The translations under genes were made by a program, and so were the position numbers. A DNA stretch of 64,000 bases from Eubacteriales bacterium. Its GTDB lineage: Bacteria; Bacillota; Clostridia; Oscillospirales; CAG-272. Shown in pieces: positions 1,570-40,714 of this stretch. The stretch spans positions 7,126-71,125 of the forward strand of contig JAZRGD010000099.1 in NCBI GenBank assembly GCA_045644045.1. Reading direction: 5' to 3'. The notes below the pieces were generated by a model. The model did no database searches. It saw only the letters and a list, made by a program, of their open reading frames with translations, and was not told where the DNA came from. Each line of letters starts with the position of its first letter. Position 1 is the stretch's first letter.

Positions 1570-1601
1570 AGAAATTTCTCCTTTTTCCTTCGTTTTTCCT
1601 G

Positions 1602-3413: not shown

Positions 3414-3431
3414 AGCTTTCGTCTCTCCGTT

Positions 3432-5258: not shown

Positions 5259-5280
5259 GTCGTATCCTTTCTTTGTTTAT

Positions 5281-5328
5281 TCGATGATTCGATGATTCGA
5301 TTATTTGATGATTCGATCATTTGATGCC
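5281..5328. repeat. 8-bp tandem repeat, about 6 units (plus strand TCGATGAT and variants), spanning the last codons of P3 and the P3-P2 spacer
   Basis: Read directly: tcgatgat tcgatgat tcgattat ttgatgat tcgatcat ttgatgcc. The P3 stop codon (rc of tca 5317-5319) lies inside unit 5. Confidence 0.8.
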
Positions 5329-7188
5329 CGTATCGCGGTAGCCTGCGCCGTCGGCGATTGTCTTGGCCTCGGGGTGCTTCTGATATAAGGCTTCACAGCC
5401 GTCCGCCTCAACGAAGCAGTTGTCAAGCAAAACGTCACGCCACGGAGTATGATTTCCCTCGCTTATGGGCGTTGTGGAATAAATATTCCAAGCCCTGTTA
5501 TGGTAGGTGAACTGCCCCGGTATGCTGTGCTGAATGAAGAGCGGCATCTGACAGTCGATGATTACGTTGTCGTACACGTCCCAGTTAGAGGCGGAGCCGT
5601 CCAGGTAATAACCGACTCTGTCGACGGGTCCCTCCTTCTCCAAAACGGCAAAATTGTGGTGAATGGTGTTAAAGCGAGGCGCGTGCTCCACCGTACAGTT
5701 GGCACCCGTCACGTAAACGGCGCCGCCGTCGCGGCAAACGTCCATAAAGTTCACCACGCGGTTATAGGCGATCTCCACGTCACGAAGATTGAACTTCTCG
5801 CCAAGCTGATACTTCACCTTGTGATAGGTATATCCGTCACCTGCGGCAATGCCCGAATAGGCACAGCCGTTGATGGTGTTGTACATGATCCTCGCCACGT
5901 CGCAAAAGCCGAGGAAGATAGCGGCGGAGCTGGGATAATCGTAAGCGATATCCTCAAGATAATTGTTCTCGATCATCACGTGATAGCTTCTGTTTTGCGC
6001 TTCATCACACGCGTATTCCCAAGCAATGAATTTTCCGTCACGATCCTCTCGATAGTTTCCGACGGAAATGCCGCACATAGCCACGCCCACGAAGCGACAG
6101 TCCTCGACGGTAGCCTTCACCGTGCTGTCGCGGAGCATCAGGCCGTTTCCGCCCAACTGCAAGAAATTACAGCTCTTCACCGTAAAATCACGAACGTCAG
6201 ACGTCAGAACGGCCGCGTGGCGAAGCTTGCCGGCGCGCTTCTCGCGGTTGGAAAGCGAGGCAAAATAACCCGTCTCACAGATGAAGGAGGAGGTAAGCCC
6301 CGTAAACGTCAGCCCCTCCAGCGTCACACCCGTCATTCCCTTGAAGACAAAGCAGTTCGAGAGTGTGCTATAGCCGTAGTTCTCTTTTGCCATATTGGAC
6401 GGATCGGTGGGCACCACGTACACAGCTCCCGACGTCCAGTCGTAAGCAAAGGTATCCGGCTCCGTCAAATAAGCGGGCGTGTTGGCGAAGAAGGTCTTGC
6501 ACCACCTGATATTGTTGTCAGAATGCACGCCGCGCACGAAATACTCATCGAACTCCTCGTAGAATTTCACCAGCGCGTAGGTCCTGTCTCTTACCACCAC
6601 GGTAGAGGACAAGTCCACGTCCTTCACGCGCAGGGTATACTGCTCCCACTGCACGAACATACGGAGCTGTGTAGCGCCGATGCCGCTTTTTTTGACAGCC
6701 TGGGCGATCTCGACGGGGGCGTAAAGCCCTTCCGCCTTCACCTCGCCGCTTCTCTGCTCGGGAAGCAGATGAAAGGGATGCCCCCAATCGGGAGAGATCG
6801 CCTTCTTCATACGAATGCCGCCATGGAAAAAGTCAAAAAACTTGGGATACTCTCCGTTTTCACTCTTTTCGAGCTGATACTTGTAATATGGCGTCCCCTC
6901 CACAGGAGTAAACTCCGCGCCCGAAACGTGGCGAAGTCCGCTAATGACGGGGCGCATAGAGGGCTTCGCCTTGACGGTCAGACGGATATTTTTGAGGGCG
7001 GGATCTTCCTCTGTGGAAAACACCAGCGGCTCGGTGACGGAATATCCACCCTGATCCAACTCAGCCACCACCTCGATGACGTTATCCTCCGAGGCGGTCT
7101 CTGCCACGGCCAGAATATGCTCTCTGATTTCGGCAAGAGTCGCTCTTTGCTCGACGCTCGCCACTCTCTTGGTTAAGGTAATTGCCAT
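5317..7188 (-). CDS. Beta-helix array paralog P3 (623 aa)
   Basis: ORF track. Motifs FVQWEQYTLRVKDVDL, YNTINGCAYSGIAAG, CRDGGAVYVTGAN. Its N-terminal 46 aa match P5 at every position but one (V/T). Confidence 0.85.
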   Translation of the reverse strand: MAITLTKRVASVEQRATLAEIREHILAVAETASEDNVIEVVAELDQGGYSVTEPLVFSTEEDPALKNIRLTVKAKPSMRPVISGLRHVSGAEFTPVEGTPYYKYQLEKSENGEYPKFFDFFHGGIRMKKAISPDWGHPFHLLPEQRSGEVKAEGLYAPVEIAQAVKKSGIGATQLRMFVQWEQYTLRVKDVDLSSTVVVRDRTYALVKFYEEFDEYFVRGVHSDNNIRWCKTFFANTPAYLTEPDTFAYDWTSGAVYVVPTDPSNMAKENYGYSTLSNCFVFKGMTGVTLEGLTFTGLTSSFICETGYFASLSNREKRAGKLRHAAVLTSDVRDFTVKSCNFLQLGGNGLMLRDSTVKATVEDCRFVGVAMCGISVGNYREDRDGKFIAWEYACDEAQNRSYHVMIENNYLEDIAYDYPSSAAIFLGFCDVARIMYNTINGCAYSGIAAGDGYTYHKVKYQLGEKFNLRDVEIAYNRVVNFMDVCRDGGAVYVTGANCTVEHAPRFNTIHHNFAVLEKEGPVDRVGYYLDGSASNWDVYDNVIIDCQMPLFIQHSIPGQFTYHNRAWNIYSTTPISEGNHTPWRDVLLDNCFVEADGCEALYQKHPEAKTIADGAGYRDTGIK

Positions 7189-7201
7189 TTCTCTTTTCTC
7201 T

Positions 7202-7238
7202 CCGCGCCCTCATCCGAGGGCGCGGCTCTTTCGTTTTT
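7202..7238 (+). promoter_or_regulatory. GC-rich intercistronic hairpin (CCGCGCCCTC-atcc-GAGGGCGCGG) with a T-rich tail on the plus strand, between P4 and P3
   Basis: 10-bp perfect stem read directly. The T-rich tract (ctctttcgttttt) follows it only on the plus (antisense) strand. On the mRNA strand the P3 SD follows it directly. Confidence 0.6.
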
Positions 7239-7241
7239 GCT

Positions 7242-9086
7242 TTAATCTACCGTAAGGCCTACTTCTCTGTAGCCCGCCGCATCGGCAATGGCCTTGGCCG
7301 CAGGATATTTTTCGTACAAAGCGTCAAGGCTCTCCTCCACGGCATAGAAGCCGAGAAGGGTGTCGTGATGAGGCTTGTGGTTGCCCTCCGGATCCACCCA
7401 CGTGGTGGAGTAGAAATTCCATACGCGGTTGTGGTGCGTATACTGATCGGGCACATGATACTGGGTGAACAGAGGAAGGGCGCTGTTGTCCATCACGTTG
7501 TCATATACGTCCCAGTTGGAAGCGGCGCCGTCAAGGTAGTAACCGCGACGGTCATGGTCCTTTTGCTCCTCCAAGGCGGCGAAATTATGGTGAATGGAAT
7601 TGAAGCGCTTTTCGTAACTCACTATGGCATTGGCACCCGTCACATAAATGGCGCCGCCATCCCGGTTCACATCCATGAAATTCAAAATACGGTTGTAAGA
7701 GATCTCCACATCCCGCAGATTGATCCGCTCGCCCGGCTCAAAGCCTACTTTGCTATAGCCGTCACCTGCGGAAATGCCCGAATAGGCACAGCTCTTGATG
7801 GTGTTGTGGGAAATGAGTGCCCCATCACAATACCCAAGCCAAACGCAAGCGGTGCTGGGATAATCGTAAGCGATATTTTCAAAATAGTTGTTGATCAGCT
7901 TGATGCCAAAGGTCTGATCTCCGTAATTCTGCCACTTGCAGCCATAGCGGTAATTGCCTGCAGAGAAGCCCCCCATAGCAATATTGCGGAAGGTGCATCC
8001 CGTTACCGAGGCTCTTACAGTGCGGTCGCAGATCTGCACGCCATTGCCGCCAAGTCCCTCAAAGGAGCAATCCTTGATCACAAGGTCGCACACATCAGAG
8101 GTCAGAATCGCGGCGTCGCGCAATCTGCCCATACGGCTCTCGTAGTTGGACAGACGGCCGAAATAGCCTGTGTCGCAAATGAAGGAGGAGGTAAGGCCCA
8201 CAAAGGTGATGCCCTCCACCGTCACATTCCGCATTCCCTTGATCACCAGCATGTTGGAAAGCTCGGTGTAGCCGTATCTCGTTCTGGTAAAGCTCTCGGG
8301 ATTTTTGGGAATCACATAAAGAGCACCCGACTGCCAATCGTAGGCATAGGTGTTTGGCTCGGTCAAAAAAGCAGGCGTGTTGATGAAGAAGGTCTCTCTG
8401 TTCCCCACATTGTTGCAGAAATGCATACCGCGCACAAAGAACTCGTCAAACTCCTCAAAGAAGGTCACCAGCGCGTAAGGCTCGCCCCCTACCTCCTTGG
8501 TGGTATTCAAGTCAATATCCTTAATGCGAAGCACATAATGCTCCCATTGCACGTACATATGCAGTTGGGCAGAGCCAATGCCCTGCTCCTTCACCGCCTT
8601 AGCCTGCTCGTAAGGAACATACAAACCCTCCAGTGTCTTTTCGCCCCGTCTTTCCTCGGGCAAAAGAGGGAAGGGATTGCGCCACACAGGCGAGGCGGCC
8701 ATTTTCAGCCGCTCAGGCCCACGGAAGAAATCATGGAATTTCGGATACTCCCCGTTTTCCTTCTTTTCGAATTGGTACTTGTAGTAGGGCGTGCCCTCCA
8801 CAGGAACAAAGTCCGATCCCATAATGGGCTTGAGAGGACTGATCGTGGGACGCATGCTCTCCTTGGCCTTGATGGTCAGACGAATGTTGGCGAGCTCCGG
8901 GTGTTCCTCCGCGGAAAACACCAAAGGCTCCTCCAAAAAGTAGTTTGCCTGATCCAAAACCACCTCAACGGCCAGATTCTTTTCGGGCGTGGCCTCGGCT
9001 GCCACAGAAAGCACATATTGCTTTAAGTCTGCCAGCGTCTCAATGCTGGTGCAGGTTGCCTCAATTCTTTTCAGTGCAATTGCCAT
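7242..9086 (-). CDS. Beta-helix array paralog P4 (614 aa)
   Basis: ORF track. Motifs YVQWEHYVLRIKDIDL, HNTIKSCAYSGISAG, NRDGGAIYVTGAN. The C-terminal ...ESLDALYEKYPAAKAIADAAGYREVGLTVD is nearly identical to P6. Confidence 0.85.
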   Translation of the reverse strand: MAIALKRIEATCTSIETLADLKQYVLSVAAEATPEKNLAVEVVLDQANYFLEEPLVFSAEEHPELANIRLTIKAKESMRPTISPLKPIMGSDFVPVEGTPYYKYQFEKKENGEYPKFHDFFRGPERLKMAASPVWRNPFPLLPEERRGEKTLEGLYVPYEQAKAVKEQGIGSAQLHMYVQWEHYVLRIKDIDLNTTKEVGGEPYALVTFFEEFDEFFVRGMHFCNNVGNRETFFINTPAFLTEPNTYAYDWQSGALYVIPKNPESFTRTRYGYTELSNMLVIKGMRNVTVEGITFVGLTSSFICDTGYFGRLSNYESRMGRLRDAAILTSDVCDLVIKDCSFEGLGGNGVQICDRTVRASVTGCTFRNIAMGGFSAGNYRYGCKWQNYGDQTFGIKLINNYFENIAYDYPSTACVWLGYCDGALISHNTIKSCAYSGISAGDGYSKVGFEPGERINLRDVEISYNRILNFMDVNRDGGAIYVTGANAIVSYEKRFNSIHHNFAALEEQKDHDRRGYYLDGAASNWDVYDNVMDNSALPLFTQYHVPDQYTHHNRVWNFYSTTWVDPEGNHKPHHDTLLGFYAVEESLDALYEKYPAAKAIADAAGYREVGLTVD

Positions 9087-9128
9087 TTTGCTATACCTTT
9101 CCTTTCGCAGTGTGCTTTACTGTTTGGA

Positions 9129-10982
9129 TCAATTGGTTTTTACGCCGGTATCCCGATAGCCTGCGCCGTCGGCGATCTCCTTTGCGTGGGGATGCTTTTC
9201 GTACAAGGTATCCAGATCCTTTTCCACCGCCCAGAAGCCCAAGAGCGTGTCGTGGTTGGGCTTGTGATTGCCTTGGGGCTCAATGTCCGTGGTGGAATAA
9301 ATGTTCCACAAACGGTTGTGATGGGTATACTGCCCCGGTACGTGATACTGAGTAAAGAGGGGAAGCTGGCAGTTGTCGATCACATTGTCGTACACATCCC
9401 AGTTGGAGGCAGAGCCGTCAAGGTAATAGCCCCGTCTGTCCCGATGTCCGCTTTCGGTCAGGAAGGCGGCGTTGTGGTGAATGGAATTGAAGCGAGGGGC
9501 GTAATCCTTGGTGCAGTTTGCGCCCGTTACGTAGATGGCCGCGCCGTCGCGGCACACGTCCATAAAGTCACGGATGTCGTTGTAGGCGATCTCTACGTTT
9601 CTCAGATTGACCTTCTCACCGGGATAATAGCTCACCTGACTGTATCCGTCGCCCGCCGCGATGGCGGAGTAGCCACAGCCCCGCACGGTGTTGTGAGACA
9701 ACTCTCCCCCGTCGCAGAAGCCGAGGAAGATACAGGCGGTGCTGGGATAATCGTAGGCGATATGCTCAAAATAGTTGTTTCGCACCTTGACGAAGAAGGT
9801 CTCCTCGCCCTGCTTCCAGCCGTTGCCCACCTTGCCGTCGGTGCGGTAGTTGCCGATAGCGATGGCACTCATCGCGGTGTCCTTGAACACGCAGTCCTCT
9901 ATTTTCAGGCCCACCGTCTTATCGCAGACCTGAACACCGTTACAGCCCAGGGCGCGGAAGCAGCAGCGCTTCACCGTCATATTTCTCATGTCCGAGGTGA
10001 GAATGGCGGCGTGGCGCAGTCTGCCCGCCCGCATCTCGTAGTTGGACAGGCGACCGAAGTAGCCCGTGTCGCAGGCGTAGGGAGAGGTCAGACCCACGAA
10101 GTCGATGCCCTCCACCGTCACGTCCTTCATCCCCTTGAACACAAGGTAGTTCGACAAGGTGGTGTAGCCAAAGGAATGTCTTGCCATATTGGCGGCGTCG
10201 GCGGGCAAAACATACACCGTCCCCGCCTTCCAATCGTAAACGAAGGTATCGGGCTCGGTGAGAAAAGCTAAGTTGTTGACGAAGAAGGTCTCACGGTTTC
10301 CGATATTGTTGGCTCTGTGCATACCGCGGACGAAGAACTCGTCAAACTCCGCGTTGAGCTTCACCAAGACGTAGGGCTCGCCGTCCACGTCCATGGTGGT
10401 ATCCGGGTCCACGTCGGTGACGCACAGAATGTAATGCTCCCATTGCACGAACATACGGAGCTGGGTAGCACCGATGCCGCTTTCCTTGATCCTTTCCGCA
10501 ATTCCCACGGGCGCGTAGAGGCCGTCCATCTTCATTTCTCCCTTGCGATGCTCAGGAAGAAGGGCGACGGGGTTGCGCCAGACGGGCGACTTGGCCATGG
10601 TCAGCCGCTTGTCACCGAGGAAAAAGTCACGGAATTTCGGATACTCGCCGTTTTCGTCCTTTTCAAACTGATACTTGTAGTAGGGCATACCCTCCACGGG
10701 GGTAAACTCCGCTCCCGAAATGCGGCGAATACCGCTGACGGTAGGGCGCATAGAGGGCTTTGCCTTGACGGTCAGACGGATGTTTTTGAGAGCGGGGTTT
10801 TCCTCTGCGGAAAACACCAGCGGCTCATCGACGAAATATTTGCCCTGATCCAGCTCCGCCACCACCTCGATGACGTTATCCTCCGAGGCGGTCTCTGCCA
10901 CGGCCAGAATATGCTCTCTGATCTCGGCAAGAGTCGCTCTTTGCTCGGTGCTTGCCACTCTTTTGGTTAAGGTAATTGCCAT
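9129..10982 (-). CDS. Beta-helix array paralog P5 (617 aa)
   Basis: ORF track. Motifs FVQWEHYILCVTDVD, HNTVRGCGYSAIAAG, CRDGAAIYVTGANCTKDYA. The N-terminus is shared with P3. Confidence 0.85.
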   Translation of the reverse strand: MAITLTKRVASTEQRATLAEIREHILAVAETASEDNVIEVVAELDQGKYFVDEPLVFSAEENPALKNIRLTVKAKPSMRPTVSGIRRISGAEFTPVEGMPYYKYQFEKDENGEYPKFRDFFLGDKRLTMAKSPVWRNPVALLPEHRKGEMKMDGLYAPVGIAERIKESGIGATQLRMFVQWEHYILCVTDVDPDTTMDVDGEPYVLVKLNAEFDEFFVRGMHRANNIGNRETFFVNNLAFLTEPDTFVYDWKAGTVYVLPADAANMARHSFGYTTLSNYLVFKGMKDVTVEGIDFVGLTSPYACDTGYFGRLSNYEMRAGRLRHAAILTSDMRNMTVKRCCFRALGCNGVQVCDKTVGLKIEDCVFKDTAMSAIAIGNYRTDGKVGNGWKQGEETFFVKVRNNYFEHIAYDYPSTACIFLGFCDGGELSHNTVRGCGYSAIAAGDGYSQVSYYPGEKVNLRNVEIAYNDIRDFMDVCRDGAAIYVTGANCTKDYAPRFNSIHHNAAFLTESGHRDRRGYYLDGSASNWDVYDNVIDNCQLPLFTQYHVPGQYTHHNRLWNIYSTTDIEPQGNHKPNHDTLLGFWAVEKDLDTLYEKHPHAKEIADGAGYRDTGVKTN

Positions 10983-26521: not shown

Positions 26522-28771
26522 TTATATCGAAACCCGAACACGTATCGTAAGAGTATCCTCGTCCCGTTCTTCCTTGATTTCCGTAATGCTTTGTATGGCA
26601 AGCGTGTATGCCATGCCCAACGGAACTCTCGCCGTATATTCGAAGCCGCCGTCAATTTTTGTCCAAGCGGCCTCTATCCTTCCTTTTTCCGCATCGTAAT
26701 GACCGCGAGCCGAGGTGATTTTGCCGCTTTCATCAAATACAGGAGCAAAAATGACCCTTTGAAAGCCACCCTCCTCAGCGTGTCGGATGCCAAGGCAATA
26801 TTCATACATCCATTCCACGCACGAGCCAAAGGAATAGTGATTGAAGGAATTCATCCCTTTTCTGATTCCACCCTCCACGGTATAACTGTCCCAATGCTCC
26901 CAAATGGTGGTAGCACCGTTTTGGATGGAATACCCCCAGCCGGGAAACTCCCTGCTTGTCAGAATGGAGTAAGCTATATCCGCCCTGCCGATATCGCAAA
27001 GCGTAGGTAGCAAAAACTTGGTTCCAAGGAAACCGGTGGTTAATTTTCCACCCGACTCCTCTAACTTGCGCGAAAGTTGCTTTGCCGCCTCGTCTTTGCT
27101 GATGATATCAAACTTGTAGGCGATCACGTACACGCTTTGGGTGTCGGAAAGGAGGATGCCGTCCTTATCCATAAATTTCTGTCGGAAGGCCGCCTTGATC
27201 TTTTCGAAAAGGTTTTTATAATATGCCTCTTCGGTGTCGCCCAAGATCCCACACATAAATGCGGCCAAGCTCGCCGCTCTTGCATAATACAGCGTGGAGA
27301 TCACCGACAAGTCAGACGGTTGCCCCAGCGACAGCCAATCGCCATACGCGCCCTTGCCGCTTCGAATGCCGTCGGGGCTTTCCACCTCATAATAGCCGAT
27401 CAGCTTTTCAAGGGCGGGAAGGTTATCTCTTAACACCCGCTTGTCCCCGTACATCATGAAATGATCGTACGGAATTTGCGCAATGGCCTCGCACCAGCCT
27501 GCCGCCGCATCCCGTCCTGTATAGGCATAGCTTCCCACGGGCGGCATGGGGGCAACGCAGGGGATCACGCCGTTTCCCAGCTGTGCATCCCGCACGTCAC
27601 TCAAGTATTTTTCAAAAAAGGCGCGACAATTCATATTCCACATGGCGCTTTTGGCGAAAATCTGGGCATCCGCCGTCCAACCAAGCCGCTCGTCCCGTTG
27701 GGGGCAATCGGTGGGAATACTTAAAAAATTATCTCTTTGTCCCCACAACGCGTTTTGGTATATTCGATTGACAAGTCCATCCGAGCAAAAAAAATCGCCC
27801 GTCGCAAAAAGATCGGTATACATGGCCTCCGCCCCGACGGAAAGGATCTCGGCTTTGCCAATGATCTTGATCTCGGCGTACTGAAAGCCGTGGTACGTAA
27901 AAAGCGGACGAACCCGCTCCACACCCACTCCCGAAAGAATATAGGTATCCACGGCCTCCGCTTTTCTTAAATTCTCGGTGTAAAGCTTGCCTTCCTTCAG
28001 CAGTTCGCCATGGCGAAGGATGAGCCGCGCGCCCCTTTTCCCTTTTACCACCAAGGAAAGCGCCCCTGCGATGTTTTGCCCCACATTGTAAAGATAAGTG
28101 CTCCTTTTCTTGGATATCAGGGTAGGCGTGAAAATATGCTTGGTAACGATGGGGGGGATCTTTACCTCCTCCAAATATAAGTTTCTCGAAAACTTAAACA
28201 CGCTTTCCTCGGCATAGCCCCAGGCCGTGTCGTCATAATCGGGTGCAGAAAAATCGCCGAGATCCAATCGGGCATCCACCAGCTCGCCCATATAAATGTC
28301 ACTTCGTCTGATGGCACCTGCCGAGGCGCGCCAATCCACATCCGCGCCGATCTCTTCTACCCGTCCGTCCTTGTATTCGATCCTAATTAAGGCCGTAAGC
28401 TCGGTGCGCGTACTGTAGCCGCAACGCTTGAACGCGTAATGAGATCCCAAGTGGCCCACTGCCCAACCGTCGGAAAGAACGATGCCGACAGCATTTTTCT
28501 GTCCAATCTTATCGGTAATGTCATACCGAACCAGCGGAAGCTTTTTGCGATAGTCCACCCATCCGGGCGAAAGATAATCGTCTGCCACAGCCGCCCCATT
28601 CAGGTAAGCCTTGTAAACACCCAACGTACTGACAAAAAGCGTTGCCCGTTCGACCAAGGCCTCCTCTGCAAGAAAAAAACGTCTGAAATAGGATGCAGGG
28701 TTGCCATATTTATCATCGGCCGATTTTTGCCTTCCTGTTTTATATGTGATCCATTTGGATTCGAGTATCAT
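26522..28771 (-). CDS. Alpha-L-rhamnosidase (GH78)
   Basis: N-terminal rhamnosidase-type beta-sandwich (GVYKAYLNG...SPGWVDY) and (alpha/alpha)6 core with TDCPQRDERLGWTADAQIF. No signal peptide. The start overlaps the upstream stop as ATGA. Confidence 0.9.
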   Translation of the reverse strand: MILESKWITYKTGRQKSADDKYGNPASYFRRFFLAEEALVERATLFVSTLGVYKAYLNGAAVADDYLSPGWVDYRKKLPLVRYDITDKIGQKNAVGIVLSDGWAVGHLGSHYAFKRCGYSTRTELTALIRIEYKDGRVEEIGADVDWRASAGAIRRSDIYMGELVDARLDLGDFSAPDYDDTAWGYAEESVFKFSRNLYLEEVKIPPIVTKHIFTPTLISKKRSTYLYNVGQNIAGALSLVVKGKRGARLILRHGELLKEGKLYTENLRKAEAVDTYILSGVGVERVRPLFTYHGFQYAEIKIIGKAEILSVGAEAMYTDLFATGDFFCSDGLVNRIYQNALWGQRDNFLSIPTDCPQRDERLGWTADAQIFAKSAMWNMNCRAFFEKYLSDVRDAQLGNGVIPCVAPMPPVGSYAYTGRDAAAGWCEAIAQIPYDHFMMYGDKRVLRDNLPALEKLIGYYEVESPDGIRSGKGAYGDWLSLGQPSDLSVISTLYYARAASLAAFMCGILGDTEEAYYKNLFEKIKAAFRQKFMDKDGILLSDTQSVYVIAYKFDIISKDEAAKQLSRKLEESGGKLTTGFLGTKFLLPTLCDIGRADIAYSILTSREFPGWGYSIQNGATTIWEHWDSYTVEGGIRKGMNSFNHYSFGSCVEWMYEYCLGIRHAEEGGFQRVIFAPVFDESGKITSARGHYDAEKGRIEAAWTKIDGGFEYTARVPLGMAYTLAIQSITEIKEERDEDTLTIRVRVSI

Positions 28772-29799
28772 ACGCTTTCCTTCTTATCACGCTTGTATCC
28801 TTTGTAAAGATGAACGATATTGATGTCCTCGGGCATATCAAGTCCGTGAGAGCCGCATCCGCCATCTATCTCATGGCAACCGTGATCCATGGCAAATCCA
28901 AGCAAGGTATGGTGATGTTTCCAGTGAGTTTTTATCAGGTTTGAAATAGCACAAAATGCGTGGTCGTTTACCCGCAGCTCCGCAAGCGCCTTTGGGCTCT
29001 CAGGACCGTTTGCGTGCATCATAGCGTCATAATTTCCGTTGTAGATCGCAATGAAGTCGTGTTCATCGTGCAGTATGATCTCCGCCACCTTTGCGTTGAC
29101 CTCCTCGATCCCGCCTTCGTCAAAATGGTAGTAGTCCATATTACGATGGAGGAAAATCTTTGCCAGACTGCATTCCTGATAGGTGATCAGCGCAACCCTT
29201 TTCCCCGCGCGGATGAGTGCGTCAAAGAGGGTGTCTATGGTAATGACGGGCTTTTCATATTTTTGTATCCCGTGAACGTCGGGCTGTGCGCCTGTATACA
29301 TTGTAGCAAAGCAAACAGGGGTAACGGATGGCATAACGGAGGCCAAATAAACCTCTTTTTCCGTGTGGCTCTTCACCCCTGCCAAATACGTGGGGTACTT
29401 CTGATAGACCCATTGCGCGATGGCGTCGGGATTATACATAACCACTCTATCGACTTTTTCTCCATCAAACACCTTGTCGATATAATTCGCCAACTCTTCA
29501 TTCTTTTTTGCCGCAAAGCTCGGCGGTTCAACTCCCATGGCATAGGCCAGTGCTCCGCATATCGTATCAAGGGAATCCGAATTGTGCTTTTCGGATTTGA
29601 CCTCACCGGAAGAAAGCATTTTGTCAACAGACACGCCAAAGATATCCTTTAATCTGAGAAGATTGTCAAGTGTCGGCAATGTCTGATCCGTCTCCCATAA
29701 GCTGATCGTTTGTCTGGAAACGCACATTTTTTCAGCAAGTTCTTCTTGCGACATTTTTTTAAGTTTTCTTAAATTTAGTATATTTGCACCAATTGTCAT
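28768..29799 (-). CDS. Fusion protein: N-terminal XRE-family HTH plus nucleotide pyrophosphatase/phosphodiesterase (alkaline-phosphatase superfamily) domain
   Basis: The start MTIGANILNLRKLKKMSQEELAEKMCVSRQTISLWE (HTH_3-like) has AAGGAGG 7 nt upstream. Downstream are MPSVTPVCFATMYTGAQPDVHGI (NPP nucleophile-Thr motif P-S-x-T-x-P...TG..P..HG), AMDHGCH and GSHG (metal-ligand motifs). Confidence 0.7.
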   Translation of the reverse strand: MTIGANILNLRKLKKMSQEELAEKMCVSRQTISLWETDQTLPTLDNLLRLKDIFGVSVDKMLSSGEVKSEKHNSDSLDTICGALAYAMGVEPPSFAAKKNEELANYIDKVFDGEKVDRVVMYNPDAIAQWVYQKYPTYLAGVKSHTEKEVYLASVMPSVTPVCFATMYTGAQPDVHGIQKYEKPVITIDTLFDALIRAGKRVALITYQECSLAKIFLHRNMDYYHFDEGGIEEVNAKVAEIILHDEHDFIAIYNGNYDAMMHANGPESPKALAELRVNDHAFCAISNLIKTHWKHHHTLLGFAMDHGCHEIDGGCGSHGLDMPEDINIVHLYKGYKRDKKESV

Positions 29800-29821
29800 G
29801 CTGCAACCTCCTTTTTTATTC

Positions 29822-29850
29822 ATTATAACACGCCCATTCCCATAAGTAAA
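29822..29850 (-). promoter_or_regulatory. Candidate extended -10 promoter (TTTACT-17 nt-TATAAT, the last spacer bases giving TGt before the -10) for the HTH-NPP/GH78/GH99-like operon
   Basis: The reverse complement reads TTTACTtatgggaatgggcgTGtTATAAT, ~20 nt upstream of the SD. Confidence 0.5.
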
Positions 29851-30111
29851 GCACAAAAAACTTGCTTTTTGCCAAGCGTTGCTTGACAAAAAGCGCCCTT
29901 TCCATCCCCCTCGCACAGGGCAGAAAAGGCGCTTGCTTTCAGCCGCTTCTCACAAAGTTGTTTTCATGTTTGAATCGTATGGGAGGGCCTTCTTTCGCAA
30001 AGAACCGCTCTTTCATTGTAGGTCCGGAGGCGAAACGCCTCTCTTGCAAACAGATCACGCAAAAGCGCGTCACCTCACCGCAAGAGCAAGTGACGGGCTG
30101 TATTGTATTTT

Positions 30112-35270: not shown

Positions 35271-35831
35271 ATGAAAAAATGGAAATGTTCCGTATGCGGT
35301 GAGATCGTAGTAGGCGAGAATCCCCCTGCCGCTTGCCCCCTGTGCAAGCAGCCCGCCGAGAAATTCGTCGAGGTCATCGAGGAGGAGAAGGATCTCCGCT
35401 CCTATGCCACCGAGCACGTGGTAGGTGTTGCCAAGGAGGCCGACGTTCCCGCCGAGATCGTAGAGGGTCTGCGCGCCAACTTCAACGGCGAGTGCTGCGA
35501 GGTCGGTATGTATCTTGCGATGGCAAGAATGGCATTCCGCGAGGGCTACCCCGAGATCGGTATGTACTGGGAAAAGGCCGCTTACGAGGAAGCGGAGCAC
35601 GCTTCCAAGTTTGCCGAGCTGCTTGGCGAGGTCGTATTCGCTTCCACCAAGGAGAACCTTGAAGCCCGCGTCGCCGCCGAGAACGGTGCTTGCGAGGGCA
35701 AGTTCGAGCTGGCAAAGCTGGCCAAGAAGCTGAGCCTTGACGCTATCCACGACACCGTACACGAGATGGCCAAGGACGAGGCTCGTCACGGCAGAGCCTT
35801 CCAGGGCTTCCTTGACAGATACTTCAAGTAA
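35271..35831 (+). CDS. Reverse rubrerythrin (N-terminal rubredoxin-like Cys4 plus ferritin-like diiron domain)
   Basis: WKCSVCGE...CPLCKQP at the N-terminus, followed by four-helix-bundle E..H motifs (EEAEHA, DEARHG). Confidence 0.85.
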
Positions 35832-35903: not shown

Positions 35904-37424
35904 ATGAAAAAAACACTTCTAACGTTATTTTTTGCCTTTGTTCTCGCACTTTCGGTTGCATCCTGCAATGGAGGAGAGACGCCCTCTGACGGCCCCGAGA
36001 ATGGGCCCGCCGAATGCGTCCACGAGTATTCGAAGATGGGCTACCACGCGAGTGCCCATTATAAGGTCTGCGCGCTCTGCGGTGAAAAGGACGCGTCCAC
36101 CACGGAAGCCCACACGCTTGACCTCAGCGGTGTCTGCGGATGCGGATGCACCTTTAAGGTCATCTCCTACTTGGATGACGGCTGGCGTGAATATCGGATC
36201 CTCTTTGGAGATCTGGTAGTCAAGGAAGGCGCTGTTTATCTCGACGGCTCGGAGTTCTATCTCCTCACCACGTATGACGAAAGCGGCAAGATCATCAAGG
36301 AGGAGGACATTGACACCTACGGCGAGCTGTTTCTTATGGAGCACTATGAATATAACGCCGCGGGAAAGCTCACGAAACGCTCCGCCTACTATGAAGAGGT
36401 CTTGGTCGGATATTATCTTTACGAATACGATGCGGAAGGAAAGCTCTACAAGGAGTCGGACTATGATTCGGACGGCACGCTTGACGATTACACCGTTTAT
36501 ATCTACGACGCAAACGGTCGCGTGATCCGAGAGGACGATTACCATGAGGACGGTGAGCTCGACGAATATCACGTTCTCGAATACAACGCACAAGGCACAC
36601 TGATCAAAAAGAGCACCTATGACGAGGATGGCGTCCTCAACGACTCTTACGAATACGGCGAAGACGGCACTCTCCTCAAAGAGATCTACGACTACCCCGG
36701 GGAATACTATGAGTATATCGAATACAATACGCTCGGTGCCCCACTCAAGAGCACTTATGAAGATTACGAGAGCGGAACTCGCCAAGAAGACGTTTATACC
36801 CGCGACAAGGACAGCAATCTCTTAACCGTAACCGTTCAGTATTTTATAGACGGTGTTCTTGACTTCACCGAGCTGCATACGTACAACGACAAGGGCCTGC
36901 TCTCGCGTTTAGACGTTGACCACCCGAGCTCCCCCGAGTATAACAGCTATACCGTCTACACCTACGACGAAAAGGGCAAGCGCATCGAGCAAAGCACCTA
37001 CCAAAACGGCGAACTCCACGAGCGCGTGAGATTTGAATACAACGACAAGGGAGAAGAGACGAAGCAGATCTTTCTTGACGCGGACGGAAACGTGCTTTTT
37101 GTCCAAGTTAACGAGTATACCGACGAAAACACGCACGTGCAAACCGAATATTACGGCGATATGGTCAGCCTGAAGGAAATCGTCATATGGTCGAACGAAA
37201 CGGGGTATATCATACTTGAAAAGGAATACGCCAAAAACGGTGACGTGACCTATTTCTACGAGGGAACGCCGTACGGCGAGGGTGTCATCCATCAAAGCGA
37301 GATGGATGACGGTGATTGCACAACGGCAAGGCATTGCACCGACTGCGACTTTATCTTCGCCCCCGCGCGAGAGCACGTCTTTGAAAACGGCTACTGCCAA
37401 AGCTGCCACAAAGCGGCAGAATAA
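35904..37424 (+). CDS. Lipoprotein with ~14 YD/MORN-like ~22-aa repeats flanked by Cys-rich clusters
   Basis: Signal peptide plus lipobox (LALSVAS-C). Repeats of the type Y.YD..GKL.KE..YD.DG.L (e.g. YEYDAEGKLYKESDYDSDGTLDDYTVYIYDANGRVIRE). Cys clusters sit near both ends (CALCG...CGCGC; CTTARHCTDC...CQSCH). Confidence 0.7.
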   Translation: MKKTLLTLFFAFVLALSVASCNGGETPSDGPENGPAECVHEYSKMGYHASAHYKVCALCGEKDASTTEAHTLDLSGVCGCGCTFKVISYLDDGWREYRILFGDLVVKEGAVYLDGSEFYLLTTYDESGKIIKEEDIDTYGELFLMEHYEYNAAGKLTKRSAYYEEVLVGYYLYEYDAEGKLYKESDYDSDGTLDDYTVYIYDANGRVIREDDYHEDGELDEYHVLEYNAQGTLIKKSTYDEDGVLNDSYEYGEDGTLLKEIYDYPGEYYEYIEYNTLGAPLKSTYEDYESGTRQEDVYTRDKDSNLLTVTVQYFIDGVLDFTELHTYNDKGLLSRLDVDHPSSPEYNSYTVYTYDEKGKRIEQSTYQNGELHERVRFEYNDKGEETKQIFLDADGNVLFVQVNEYTDENTHVQTEYYGDMVSLKEIVIWSNETGYIILEKEYAKNGDVTYFYEGTPYGEGVIHQSEMDDGDCTTARHCTDCDFIFAPAREHVFENGYCQSCHKAAE

Positions 37425-37433
37425 AAACCGACC

Positions 37434-37683
37434 ATACGCAAAGAAGAGCGACCACGGTCGCTCTTCTTTTTTCTTTTTTCCATGGAAAAACCATGAAACT
37501 TTTATGCTTGCGCTTCCCTATTAGAGCTCAAAAATGGAAACGGGGAAAGTGGAAGTTTTTAAGCAATGATATTATATCGCAAAACATAGCACTTGCTACC
37601 TTGACAGATACTTTAAGTAAGATACCCGTAAAAGGCAGACTGCGGTCTGCCCTTTTTTGTATGAATTTATAGACTTTCAAGGA
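37434..37683. repeat. Left copy of a composite terminator-pair repeat (T1 37441-37472, T2 37630-37658, plus shared tail TTTATAGACTTTCAAGGA)
   Basis: The 39-nt run atacgcaaagaagagcgaccacggtcgctcttctttttt is identical to 38814-38852. aaaaggcagactgcggtctgcccttttttgtatgaatttatagactttcaagga is similar to 38952-39008. The interior between T1 and T2 differs. Confidence 0.8.
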
Positions 37684-37948
37684 AAGTAAGGAGAAGCGTT
37701 TTTTGCTTAGGAGAAAGCCTAGAAAAAGCGGACGCTATTTCATCTGAGTCCGCATCGTCCTTGAAAAATTCTTGCATGGAAATGCTCATAGCATCACAAA
37801 GGAGCTGCAGATGTCCAACGGTAATATCCGCCTGACCAAGTTCAACGCGCCGAAGGTGGGTTTGAGATACGCCCGCTCTTTCCGCTAAGCCGTTTTGCGT
37901 AAAGCCGCACCGCTCCCGCAGACTAATCAATCTCTTGCTTACATCCAT
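37667..37948 (-). CDS. XRE-family HTH transcriptional regulator (93 aa)
   Basis: LISLRERCGFTQNGLAERAGVSQTHLRRVELGQ (HTH_3-like). AAGGAG 7 nt upstream of the ATG. Confidence 0.8.
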   Translation of the reverse strand: MDVSKRLISLRERCGFTQNGLAERAGVSQTHLRRVELGQADITVGHLQLLCDAMSISMQEFFKDDADSDEIASAFSRLSPKQKTLLLTFLESL

Positions 37949-38018
37949 AACGTTTCTCCTTGTTAGTCCTATAAGAATATATTATCACAATTTTTCTAAA
38001 AACATTATCCTTATAGGG

Positions 38019-38047
38019 TTGACATTTTAGTCTTATAATGTTATAAT
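38019..38047 (+). promoter_or_regulatory. Perfect-consensus sigma-A promoter (TTGACA-17 nt-TATAAT) for the AT-rich ORF, overlapped by TTAGTCYTATAA motifs
   Basis: Read directly. The motif ttagtcctataag (37963-37975) recurs as ttagtcttataat (38027-38039). The inverted pair CCTATAAG (37968-75) / CTTATAGG (38010-17) is a plausible operator. Confidence 0.55.
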
Positions 38048-38106
38048 AGGCTTGCTCAGCTCTTCGCTAGCAAATCAATAAAGCAATCCGATTGGAGGAA
38101 TGAACA

Positions 38107-38757
38107 ATGACAGAAGGAAAAAGTGAATTTGATACAAGGTATCAAAACTGGGAAACGTGGGTGATTCCAGGCAAAAATTGGTGGCCAATGCATGATCCAT
38201 GGAATTTTGAGCGCCAAAGGCTATACAAATTGCTCGGAATTAAAATAATCAAAAAAATTAAAAAAACCTATGGCGGCACCTATGAAACAGGAGAATACCA
38301 AATAACTAAAACCTCTGCGAACACATATAGCGTCGGCAAGAAAACTGAATCTTATAGTGTTCGCGATACTTATTATATCATTGGATATGATAAGGATAAA
38401 ATCACCGATCTTGAAAAATATGAAAAACTCAGGGAAACAATGGAACTCTTTTTAGCAGAAGCTGAAAAGAAATTCCCAACAAAGTATAACGACCGTGATA
38501 AATGGGAAAATATAACTCCCGCATATTTTAATTTCAAGACAAGACTTAAGCTGCGTTGGAAAAACGAGTTGATATTGTTTGCGACCTCCTGTCTTCTTAT
38601 TCTACCGGCACCCATTGTCTTAATTAAAACAATATTATATCATACAACTTTCAATAAAAAATTTTCAAAATATAGACCTTTGGCAAGCGATTACTTCGAT
38701 CGATTGAAAGAATTCGAAGAAGAGATTAAGAAGATTTGCAACTTTGACAACAATTGA
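38107..38757 (+). CDS. Hypothetical protein (216 aa), strongly AT-rich gene, Trp-rich N-terminus, one hydrophobic segment near the C-terminus
   Basis: ORF track. GGAGG 8 nt upstream of the ATG. Composition is visibly far more AT-rich than all neighbours. Hydrophobic LILFATSCLLILPAPIVLIKTIL. No family recognised. Confidence 0.6.
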   Translation: MTEGKSEFDTRYQNWETWVIPGKNWWPMHDPWNFERQRLYKLLGIKIIKKIKKTYGGTYETGEYQITKTSANTYSVGKKTESYSVRDTYYIIGYDKDKITDLEKYEKLRETMELFLAEAEKKFPTKYNDRDKWENITPAYFNFKTRLKLRWKNELILFATSCLLILPAPIVLIKTILYHTTFNKKFSKYRPLASDYFDRLKEFEEEIKKICNFDNN

Positions 38758-38813
38758 AGCAAAAGAAAATTTATCATTATGGAAGAAACAAGAACAACCG
38801 AATGCACGCAGTT

Positions 38814-39008
38814 ATACGCAAAGAAGAGCGACCACGGTCGCTCTTCTTTTTTGCTTTCACTATGAAATACACTTATTTGGTCATGATGAATGCAAATGGG
38901 CAAGGCGGAAAATTTCATGCTAACGTTACTTTTACAGTTGTTGCAGAAAGCAAAAGGGCAGACTGTGAAGTCTGCCCTTTTGCGTATGTATTTATAGACT
39001 TTCAAGGA
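38814..39008. repeat. Right copy of the composite terminator-pair repeat (T1 38821-38852, T2 38952-38984, plus shared tail)
   Basis: See the left copy. T1 is identical. T2 and the tail are similar, with a few substitutions or indels. Confidence 0.8.
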
Positions 39009-39012
39009 TTTT

Positions 39013-40514
39013 TTAGTCTTTAAGCAGCTCGTTGATGGTCTGCACCGTTTTGCGGACCAAGAGGTCGCCGCCCTCGTGACCTGTCACGCCACTGGAAACG
39101 TAGGCGGAATAATGGCTTCCCTGCTCCGCCTTTTCGGTGGGAAGATAGCCGTAGTAACCGCAGGCAAGCTGCACGAGGAAGGTTTGCGAGGCGTGGCTTC
39201 TCGCGCGCATTTGGTTGCCGTAATCCAAGAAAAGCTCGTAGGGGTTGGTGGCAAAGGCCACGTCTCCCAAGCGAATGACGTGTATCTCGTTAGGAAGGGT
39301 ATCCACGATCTCCTGCGCCTTGCTTCTGGCGACCACGCCCGCGTGCACGTACATCTTCGCCTTTTCGTTAAAGGTGATGACGCCGTCGCCCACCTCATCG
39401 GCAAACTCCCTAATGGCCTTCACGGCGGCATCTCTCTCGGCGGGAGTCACGCGGCGAAGGGGAACGTCTACCGTCAGCGTTTTGTGGATCAGTACCGTGT
39501 CCTCTACCCGATCCGCCTCGGTCAAGCCCTCGTAGGCATACAAAACCTCGTTGGCGATCCTGCGACCCACCAAGGCACAGCCTTCAAGTCAAACATGGAG
39601 GGGTCCGCGTTGCGGACGGTCACATCCTCTCTTACGATGTTGGGGTCGTTGATGGGGGTCTCGGGCTCTACCCAGCGGATCATATCGCGGGGGCACTGAT
39701 CGCCCGCAGGGGCGCAAAGACCCAAAAGAAGGATCTCCTCTCCCAGCTCACGGCGCAGAAGCTCCTTCACCTTGCCCCAATAATCCGAGGAAATAAAGCT
39801 TCTATGCTCAAGGACCTGGGCGGGGCAAGCCACGTTTGCCACCACACCCGTCAGCTTCCCCTTCTTGTCAAAGGTAAAAAGCAGCTCGATGCCACTGTCG
39901 TTGCCTCCCTCCAGCGCGGTAAAGGCGGCGGTGTCGGTATCGCCCCACATCTTAGCCGAGCCGTCGCTGTAGCAAACGCGGCGGCACATACCCACGGCGG
40001 CTCTGCCAAAGCCCTTGGCGTAAGAGCCCTGCGCGCGGCTTTCCCAAGCTGTCTGTGCCGCCTCGGCAATGCGATCGGCAAAGAAATCGAACGCCTCTTG
40101 TCCCCTAAAAAGATCGTCTCCCGCATACTTGACCAGCTCCTCGTATTTAAGACTCGGGCAAAGGGAAAGCAGCACGTCGAGCGCTGTACCACTGGTGACC
40201 GACATATCCGAGCGAAACGCGAATTCAGGCGCGGTATGGGTGTGGATGGCGCTGATCACGACCTTATCCAAGGGAAGGCCCTCTACCGCCGCCAGTCTTT
40301 CTCTGACGGCGCACAAAAGCTTGTGGCTGACAGAAACCAGGTCGCAGGCACAAAAGATCATGCTATCCTCCCCTGCCTCCATCGCCATAGCGGTGACGGT
40401 GATGGGGCTCTCCACCTCGTCGGTGATCCTCTCGTAAAACTGACCTGCCAGATTCACCTTTCTTCCTTTGGGAATGAGGTCGATCTCACTCCAACCGATC
40501 TTGATGCTTGCCAT
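39013..40514 (-). pseudogene. Neutral/alkaline ceramidase-like hydrolase, split by a single -1/+2 frameshift near 39575-39595 (track ORFs 39522..40568 and 39013..39573)
   Basis: Two overlapping same-strand ORFs in different frames. The upstream frame reads ...VRNADPSMFDLK, and the downstream frame continues LEGCALVGRRIANEVLYAYEGL... N-terminal IGWSEIDLIP...AIHTHTAPEF resembles the ceramidase_alk-type N-terminus. Likely start MASIKIG at 40514. Confidence 0.6.
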
Positions 40515-40714
40515 AATGATCCATCCTTTCAATTTTAAATAGCGGACGACAAAGGACCGTGCGGGCACGCCCGCGCTTCTGTCACCCTATACTACGCTTT
40601 TCATTATAACATAAACAAAAAAGAAAAAGCATGCAATTTCTGTCAAAATGCATGCAATTTCTTTCATTTTTTCGGTGTTTCTTCCCTTTGCGCAAGCCGT
40701 TTACAAGCGACTTC

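Follow-up and report, generated by a model that had tools for sequence, protein, structure and literature searches.

The DNA examined here is a 64,000-nt stretch (the window; coordinates are positions within it) of contig JAZRGD010000099.1 in the Eubacteriales bacterium assembly GCA_045644045.1. It contains a short AT-rich islet with two divergent genes, one encoding a 93-aa XRE-family helix-turn-helix (HTH) repressor and the other, orf216, a 216-aa protein, and this pair is bracketed by duplicated hairpins, T1 and T2 (Table 1). For comparison we used 129 fetched loci, referred to by L-numbers; 19 distinct XRE loci served for alignment and for comparison of the genes found opposite XRE, hereafter its cargo. 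The lowest GC of the whole 64-kb window lies at 37950-39000 (0.33-0.37 in windowed GC). orf216 has a GC of 0.344 and the XRE gene of 0.472, compared with 0.51-0.58 in the flanking genes, and at third codon positions (GC3) the values are 0.35 and 0.45, respectively, against 0.68 ± 0.07 (minimum 0.51) for host genes, which places the XRE gene 3 standard deviations (sd) below them. The islet segment is compositionally foreign. A previous sequence-only reading of this DNA had described the AT-rich islet, its divergent XRE gene and 216-aa open reading frame (ORF), and, between the two, a perfect TTGACA-17-TATAAT promoter and repeated operator-like motifs. All of these descriptions hold: the GC3 of both genes falls below the host minimum, a Pfam HTH_3 match and the ORF coordinates agree with the divergent pair, the promoter matches the consensus at every position and has an upstream TG in addition, and the motif TTATARGACTAA occurs exactly twice in the window, where 0.19 copies are expected, with both copies (37963-37974 and 38027-38038) at the islet.

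Table 1. Features of the islet and its surroundings, with their positions in the window.
Feature	Position	Strand	Basis
3' end of the rubrerythrin-like gene (..LDRYFK*), left copy of a 22-nt direct repeat; gene intact	35810..35831	+	blastn
506-aa lipoprotein gene (signal peptide, Cys lipobox), ends 10 nt before T1	35904..37424	+	ORF
T1, left copy; hairpin with 13-bp stem and T-run, terminator of the lipoprotein gene	37434..37487	+	fold -20.6 kcal/mol, z = -6.1
Motif AAATGGAAACGGGGAAAGTGG of the left spacer, common to L003 upstream of an orf216 relative and weakly to the right spacer (38888-38908)	37532..37552	+	local alignment
Rubrerythrin 3'-end remnant (..LDRYFK*), runs through the stop codon; 9 nt separate it from T2	37599..37620	+	blastn
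T2, left copy, with tail; bidirectional hairpin, XRE terminator; tail = last 5 codons and stop	37630..37683	.	alignment, fold
Conserved XRE switch module (XRE gene, XRE promoter, 3 operator boxes, divergent -35/-10)	37661..38048	-	blastn
XRE-family HTH repressor gene, 93 aa	37667..37948	-	Pfam HTH_3, E=1.7e-11
Operator O2 (predicted), TTAGTCCTATAAGAATAT, near-palindrome over the predicted XRE transcription start	37963..37980	.	invariant block, 19-locus alignment
Operator O3 (predicted), TTATCCTTATAG, between both promoters	38005..38016	.	conserved alignment block
Divergent promoter P_div, TTGACA-17-TATAAT with upstream TG	38019..38047	+	12/12 consensus matches
Operator O1 (predicted), TTAGTCTTATAA	38027..38038	.	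within P_div spacer
orf216, cargo gene, membrane-anchored (predicted), rare family	38107..38757	+	ORF; GGAGG ribosome-binding site 8-9 nt upstream of ATG
T1, right copy; orf216 terminator	38814..38867	+	repeat and fold
T2, right copy, with truncated XRE-module 3' end (18 nt coding, stop, 3' flank)	38952..39008	.	alignment, fold
Right-hand neighbor gene, conserved ~500-aa protein, split by 1-nt frameshift near 39582	39013..40568	-	orthologues are single ORFs

The XRE gene is conserved as part of a longer DNA unit, which we call the switch module. In alignments of loci from unrelated contexts, conservation at the DNA level extends over 388 bp, covering the gene together with ~105 nt of its upstream region, and blastn against all 129 fetched loci matched this module to 30 other loci at 66-79% nucleotide identity. 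The boundaries are sharp, the match ending at 37661 on the side of the XRE stop codon and at 38048 at the -10 box of the divergent promoter, P_div; outside the module, the sole match of the islet to the 129 loci was that of the orf216 coding sequence to L001 and L002. The encoded protein exceeds the gathering score of Pfam HTH_3 (44.4 bits versus a cutoff of 23, residues 9-61). Three predicted operators, O1, O2, and O3, are co-oriented and all related to the 18-bp dyad TTAGTCTTA.TAAGACTAA, the ideal form of which is TTAGTCTTATAAGACTAA; in L107, L110, and L111, O3 has the complete TATAAGACTAA box. The extended -10 box of the XRE promoter (TGTGATAAT) is the reverse complement of 37981-37989. From these sequence features we infer that XRE binds at O2 and at the other boxes.

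Relatives of XRE form more than 2,300 clusters at E<1e-8, and the best 120 of these are all 85-92% identical and nearly all exactly 93 aa long. Against every sampled relative, dN is 0.05-0.2 and pS is 0.6-0.97 (synonymous sites saturated), and this combination of low dN and saturated pS indicates that XRE is old, strongly constrained, and not recently transferred from any sampled relative. Matches to PADLOC models were weak (Control_protein, E=1e-4; capH, E=7.6e-9, 34.6 bits; HTH_VI, E=3e-10), as were those to HipB-like (Y4mF family) and PezA proteins, and the best NCBIfam and PHROG similarities were to phage repressors (RstR, E=1.1e-10, under its cutoff; phrog_3). The 391-nt module DNA had no match among 50,697 phage records or 72,556 plasmids, and XRE had one single match in IMG/VR compared to thousands in metagenomes.

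What lies opposite this module varies strongly. The XREs of the 19 distinct loci are 58-89% identical and come from hosts with GC of 0.31 to 0.52, and at nearly all of these loci a gene on the opposite strand starts 120-185 bp upstream of XRE. The partners belong to ~13 unrelated kinds, among them three different lipoproteins (559-aa proteins included), zinc-ribbon and other membrane proteins, an SPFH-double-zinc-ribbon protein, and several proteins of no family. At the more distant XREs, the partners also include DNA methyltransferase-like proteins and a 1,099-aa SNF2 helicase; such restriction/methyltransferase-type neighbors were found only at XREs of 52-63% identity (L107, L111, and L119). 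In L099, L105, and L123 the XRE surroundings have in common int (C7), C8, a resolvase gene (C3), and C9-C11, and the cargos are 434, 357, and 138 aa, respectively; L085 and L091 likewise have the same flanking genes and different cargo. The switch module is thus widely conserved, and the gene opposite it changes between nearly all sampled genomes. The sequence-only reading had described XRE and orf216 as one repressor-controlled cassette; the two are not an obligate pair, given that XRE belongs to a large family facing ~13 cargos and that relatives of orf216 occur without XRE. A literature search turned up nothing relevant on a conserved XRE with variable divergent cargo. In L091, a second, unrelated 90-aa HTH gene is divergent from the gene of a 258-aa membrane protein (2024-3224), and part of this protein, judged only by eye, is similar to the 214-aa lipoprotein that is the cargo of the main XRE at 3 kb distance; if the resemblance holds, L091 would carry two repressor-cargo modules in tandem.

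At two of the comparison loci, which represent one lineage, XRE and its variable cargo reside in an integrative element of ~8-9 kb (L123, 2207-10204; L099, about 640-9670), which also encodes a tyrosine integrase (Phage_integrase, E=1.6e-28), a serine recombinase (Resolvase, E=1.2e-20), and a large uncharacterized protein. The serine recombinase gene is convergent with XRE in both, and is also found downstream of XRE in L105 and L106. Its insertion point is the 3' end of a gene of the GGGtGRT family, and it is bounded by duplicates of the last ~30 codons of that gene together with the hairpin GACACAT..ATGTGTC. In L123 these repeats are composed in the same manner as those of the islet: a near-identical block is followed by an unrelated spacer and then by a hairpin whose stems are conserved and whose loop differs. 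The L123 element directly follows tail-like and holin-like genes (recognized by eye; no Pfam match) on an IMG/VR contig.

The hairpin of these elements recurs in L085 (3977-10010; also in L086 and L087), where four co-oriented copies of it (GGACACATCA..TGATGTGTCC) delimit three units beside XRE: a 559-aa lipoprotein gene with XRE and no integrase, a gene for a 700-aa protein, and a pair of small genes. L085 further contains a 108-nt direct repeat (6326-6433 = 8880-8987) and, at one junction, a GGGtGRT 3' remnant (6451-6555), and in L091 XRE lies directly against GGGtGRT, without insertions of the L085 type. L085 looks like tandem accretion at one attachment (att) site.

The repeats that border the islet are also composite. 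T1 has a perfect 39-nt core (37434-37472 = 38814-38852), for which 0 occurrences are expected by chance; beyond the core, 15 nt are 60% identical, and the 54 nt together are 89% identical. The two copies of T2 with its tail differ by 5 substitutions and a 2-nt loop indel (about 88% identity). These hairpins all fold strongly (z = -3.9 to -9.4 versus shuffled sequence), and the right copy of T2, which lies 4 nt from the stop codon of the right-hand neighbor gene, is now the terminator of that gene. Both duplications had been seen in the sequence-only reading, including the left tail that encodes the ..FLESL* end of XRE, and there the right tail was thought to be the remnant of a second cassette or of the recombination event. 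The former proposal gains support from the alignment of the right tail and its 3' flank with the end of the XRE module that is conserved at other loci, rather than with the C-terminus of the neighbor gene, which identifies the right copy as a second, truncated XRE-module 3' end. We also considered the tail as an old C-terminus of the neighbor gene, as an in-frame 'KILESL*' follows its stop codon, and rejected this because about 45 orthologues all end ..IN.M(F/K)*. As the site holds one intact module and one truncated copy, at least two XRE-module events must have taken place there.

The two T1-T2 spacers have no detectable homology to each other, in agreement with the sequence-only reading, and their lengths are 157 and 99 nt instead of the 130-190 nt given there. 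A forced MAFFT alignment presented them as homologous over their full length, which was rejected by blastn and by shuffle-controlled local alignment (p about 0.13). The left spacer contains a 21/22 match (37599-37620) to the last 22 nt of a rubrerythrin-like gene 1.8 kb upstream (blastn, E=2.5e-4). A 45-nt stretch of the same spacer resembles positions 247-290 of L003 (score 31 versus 18.2 ± 2.5 for shuffles, 0/1000 of which reach it) and holds the motif AAATGGnAACGGGGAAnGnGG (37532-37552 and 38888-38908 in the window). The 506-aa lipoprotein gene lies between the two rubrerythrin 3'-end copies; its only match was a weak one to a lipoprotein N-terminus, and none of the fetched loci contains a homologue. 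A rubrerythrin gene that converges with an orthologue of the right-hand neighbor gene is present in L010. The ancestral junction was probably the rubrerythrin gene and the neighbor gene converging on T2, and the lipoprotein gene, with the 22-nt rubrerythrin 3' duplication on either side, seems to have been inserted later. The sequence-only reading had the islet inserted by recombination at terminator repeats beside the lipoprotein gene; the first part of this claim fits what is seen in L085, L099, and L123, and the second would need changing if the lipoprotein gene indeed arrived later.

Other accounts of the hairpins were tried and gained no support. T2 or the GACACAT hairpin might have been a genome-wide repeat of the REP (repetitive extragenic palindromic) kind, but the T2 stem has only two occurrences in the window and, among the loci tested, the GACACAT hairpin was found only at XRE loci. 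T1 and T2 are absent from all 129 loci, and the T1 core has no exact match in the JGI metagenomes. An RNA explanation fails on the Rfam matches, which were terminators only and far under gathering scores, and no tRNA or Rfam family adjoins XRE elsewhere. Just downstream of orthologues of the neighbor gene in L030, L031, L037, and L042 we observed terminators with T1-like arms (AAGAAGAG..CTCTTCTT) and different stem interiors, which could reflect convergence or a trace of an old common terminator.

Concerning the present cargo, orf216 encodes six Trp within its first 33 residues and a single hydrophobic segment near the C-terminus, as already noticed from the sequence. It gave no Pfam, PADLOC, NCBIfam, or credible PHROG match, and searches of 50,697 phage records, 72,556 plasmids, and IMG/VR did not match it either. 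The family is rare: only 3 clusters, one of them orf216 itself, were found among 5.8 billion proteins, and a profile search recovered 21 representatives among 1.84 billion proteins. Features of their alignment are a soluble, conserved N-terminal region, a single hydrophobic segment, and an amphipathic helix at the C-terminus. Since no N-terminal signal peptide is evident by eye, the protein is likely tail-anchored with a cytoplasmic N-domain. An AlphaFold (AF2) model is reasonably confident (predicted local distance difference test, pLDDT, 80; predicted template modeling score, pTM, 0.67) and has no credible structural relative in PDB or BFVD. Relatives of orf216 never adjoin this XRE elsewhere. 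Without XRE, they are found beside a Fic gene (L001), as a low-GC gene beside a high-GC prmA-like gene (L003; prmA recognized only by eye), adjacent to a LytTR two-component system (L127), and in a defense-island-like stretch with type I restriction-modification (R-M) genes and an IetA-like AAA ATPase (L124).

In L124 (4236-8228), the relative has on one side a gene homologous to the L109 XRE cargo (38% identity, E=1e-22) and on the other that of the IetA-like AAA ATPase, which has a peptidase M41 domain; this cluster is downstream of the type I R-M genes and looks like a defense-island-like group of small membrane-anchored proteins. The sequence-only reading had suggested a toxin, abortive-infection, or defense role for orf216, and the searches yielded no evidence for this: PADLOC and the fold comparison gave no match, and the relative in L124 is the sole hint. 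Our leading guess, which we offer tentatively, is that orf216 is a conditionally expressed envelope effector acting in exclusion or abortive infection, and this best guess also covers competition between mobile elements. It draws on the envelope bias of the cargos, the restriction/defense-type genes next to distant XREs, and the neighborhood in L124.

Together with the elements in L099 and L123 and the units in L085, these observations suggest that the islet belongs, as a minimal form without an integrase or as a decayed remnant, to a family of small integrative cassettes of gut Clostridia with the 388-bp XRE switch as its hallmark; to this reading we assign a probability of roughly 0.55. According to this model, XRE dimers would bind the three boxes; as O1 lies between the -35 and -10 boxes of P_div, bound XRE would shut that promoter, and as O2 lies at the XRE start site, it would also limit its own synthesis. 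An inducing signal would lift repression and allow the gene downstream of P_div to be expressed. The slot downstream of P_div would turn over, with orf216 as its present occupant, and the duplicated hairpins would be attachment-type scars. Given the truncated second XRE 3' end and the rubrerythrin remnant beside T2, XRE cassettes may have used the terminator between the rubrerythrin and neighbor genes more than once, by tandem accretion followed by decay, and the perfect T1 copy would be a younger duplication.

Several results weigh against this interpretation. First, the window contains neither an integrase nor a transposase gene within about +/-12 kb of the islet, in accordance with the sequence-only reading, and no homologue of the L099/L123 element genes; since no element integrase, resolvase, or Rep-like gene is present in the window, a site-specific origin is an analogy. 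Second, the att of the full elements (the GGGtGRT 3' end with the GACACAT hairpin) is absent from the window, and T1 and T2 share no sequence with the att hairpin. Third, the three repeat pairs are interleaved, and a simple two-step model does not explain the perfect T1 duplication. Homologous (RecA-type) insertion-duplication leaves the same scars and is indistinguishable here. Fourth, an empty-site search by a scan of genome contigs gave, as its best result, a neighbor-gene orthologue of 74% identity without synteny, and exact-protein look-ups for orf216, XRE, and rubrerythrin gave no result. Fifth, PADLOC gave no match for orf216 or seven other XRE cargos, and only the methyltransferase-like cargo of a distant XRE scores. 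Lastly, repression by XRE and any effect of orf216 are predictions from sequence, and composition does not decide whether XRE arrived jointly with orf216 or before it, because its GC3 (0.45) lies between the host and cargo values.

Among other explanations, the one that survives best holds that XRE is a resident chromosomal gene and that only orf216 (about 38049-38813) was swapped in by homologous or illegitimate recombination, the terminator duplicates being local by-products with no mobile element involved. The age and constraint of XRE would fit this, as would its GC3, which roughly tracks host GC across loci, the synteny around it, which is kept within lineages while the cargo changes, the window without recombinase genes, and the composition of orf216, which is far more AT-rich than XRE. 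However, the synteny in L099 and L123 is that of an integrative-element backbone within att-like repeats, the truncated second XRE 3' end, at a distance of 1.3 kb, requires two or more XRE-module events, and the XRE GC3 is still 3 sd under that of host genes; we consider this explanation rather unlikely. The related notion of a resident core XRE with a swapping neighbor had to be revised, as the flanks in L099 and L123 are an integrase-bearing, repeat-bounded element backbone.

It is improbable that the islet is a prophage remnant or moron, with XRE as a cI-like repressor and orf216 as a lysogenic-conversion or superinfection-exclusion gene, even though the best similarities of XRE are to phage repressors, the divergent layout with three operators resembles a lambda-type switch, and L123 adjoins the tail-like and holin-like genes. 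There are no phage genes in the neighborhood of the islet in the window, and the XRE of L123 lies outside the group of phage genes, in a separate, adjacent int-bearing block that has repeats of its own. With orf216 unmatched in the phage, plasmid, and IMG/VR searches, and the XRE module represented by its one IMG/VR match versus thousands of metagenomic ones, the phage-derived moron proposed by the sequence-only reading is weakened.

A toxin-antitoxin-like pair, in which orf216 would be a membrane toxin and XRE its antitoxin or repressor, is more doubtful still. XRE-type HTH proteins are common antitoxins, the weak HipB-like and PezA similarities point the same way, the partner is a small membrane protein, and the strong consensus promoter would need tight repression. 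The genes are divergent, though, with no co-transcription, and orf216 relatives occur without XRE; moreover, as this XRE has 559-aa lipoproteins, methyltransferases, and a 1,099-aa helicase opposite it at other loci, it cannot be a specific protein antitoxin. An assembly artefact, with foreign low-GC DNA joined via the 39-nt T1 repeat, is very unlikely: the DNA appears to come from a single 89-kb NCBI contig, no second assembly of the locus was found, and the junctions coincide with a perfect repeat, but for a chimera the foreign piece would have to carry T1 at either end, the T2 and tail duplicate links the XRE 3' end to the neighbor-gene stop codon 4 nt away, the XRE GC3 is shifted toward the host, and similar architectures occur in several independent assemblies of other organisms (L085-L089).

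The integrative-cassette reading combines known kinds of system, namely a minimal cassette resembling a cis-mobilizable element (CIME), a hotspot-type variable slot, and a C-protein/cI-like switch. ICESt1 and integrative and mobilizable elements are described as integrating site-specifically at the 3' end of a target gene, accreting in tandem, and decaying to CIMEs that keep only attL and attR (PMC5704250). Like these, the islet has a short gene set without integration or transfer genes, with only XRE and orf216 between the repeats, bracketed by two pairs of direct repeats (T1, 39/39; T2 with tail, about 88%) that contain a gene end and a terminator and may correspond to attL and attR. Tandem repeat-delimited units (in the window and in L085) and related full elements with an integrase (L099 and L123) are a further likeness. 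Unlike in these systems, the window repeats differ from the att of the full elements, the target being the rubrerythrin or XRE 3' end and not GGGtGRT, and the unit of 1.3-1.4 kb is far smaller than described CIMEs.

P2-like prophages and P4-like satellites carry variable anti-phage hotspots, one of them between cI and int (Rousset et al. 2022, PMC9122126). Both situations have in common a slot of 1-5 kb that lies between conserved mobile-element genes and has a high turnover of genes; here the slot lies between the integrase side and the repressor. L099, L105, and L123 have such a variable locus between conserved element genes, whereas the window has no backbone. In contrast to those hotspots, the conserved flank here is a repressor-operator-promoter unit with an expected direct control over the cargo, gut Clostridia are the hosts, and no recognized defense protein is present among the cargos next to the closest XREs, in line with the PADLOC searches of orf216 and seven other cargos.

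XRE also resembles the C proteins of R-M systems and CapH in being a small XRE-type HTH protein with repeated boxes at its own promoter that is predicted to gate a potentially harmful neighbor, and its distant relatives adjoin methyltransferase and SNF2 helicase genes. It differs from them in that no restriction enzyme (endonuclease), methylase, or CapP-type metallopeptidase gene adjoins XRE in the window, where the capH match is weak (34.6 bits), in that its genes are divergent and form no operon, and in that the cargo set consists mostly of envelope proteins. With the lambda cI/cro switch it has in common the back-to-back promoters, three related operators, and a predicted autoregulated HTH repressor; unlike lambda, the islet contains no cro-like second regulator or lytic operon, and the divergent transcript appears to carry one or a few variable accessory genes. 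Type II toxin-antitoxin systems are co-transcribed, co-occurring pairs, and here the genes are divergent and the partners ~13 in kind. The islet also differs from integron cassettes, having no integrase, a cargo with its own consensus promoter, and intrinsic-terminator-like hairpins (judged without attC models). It does not have the composition of a type VI retron either, with no reverse transcriptase ORF and no Rfam match, despite the HTH_VI score of E=3e-10.

What is notable here is the sharply bounded, widely conserved repressor-promoter unit, which is predicted to gate an open-ended set of mostly uncharacterized genes. One possible extension, more speculative than the cassette reading itself, is that the 388-bp unit serves as a portable "expression socket" with which small integrative elements of gut Clostridia carry, and tightly gate, conflict genes of an open-ended repertoire (for phage exclusion, abortive infection, or inter-element competition), that orf216 and the other uncharacterized cargos of the membrane and lipoprotein kinds are new effector families, and that integrase-less units still move via terminator hairpins. 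Should the reading prove right, the 388-bp unit would be a single, easily searched marker (a 93-aa XRE, three TAAGACTAA-type boxes, and a consensus promoter) for a large, unexplored pool of accessory genes in little-studied gut Clostridia, most of them of no known family, and its use would parallel that of the P2/P4 hotspot flanks in anti-phage discovery. It would likewise provide a defined genetic switch (repressor, 18-bp dyad, and two promoters) for organisms with few genetic tools, and terminator hairpins and gene 3' ends would be reusable docking sites for very small cassettes.

Concerning the right-hand neighbor gene, the frameshift in it (..gacttgaag|gctgtgcc..) agrees with the sequence-only reading, which had called it a frameshifted ceramidase-like gene; the ceramidase label is not supported, with no Pfam and no PDB sequence match. 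Relatives such as L005 have a single ORF of ~499 aa, and the gene in the window could be a pseudogene or the product of an assembly error. In L010, L020, and L046 we observed two tandem copies of this ~500-aa neighbor-gene family. Elsewhere in the window, a gene at 28768-29916 on the minus strand, with a GC of 0.46, encodes a 382-aa protein with an N-terminal HTH_3 domain and a type I phosphodiesterase/nucleotide pyrophosphatase domain.

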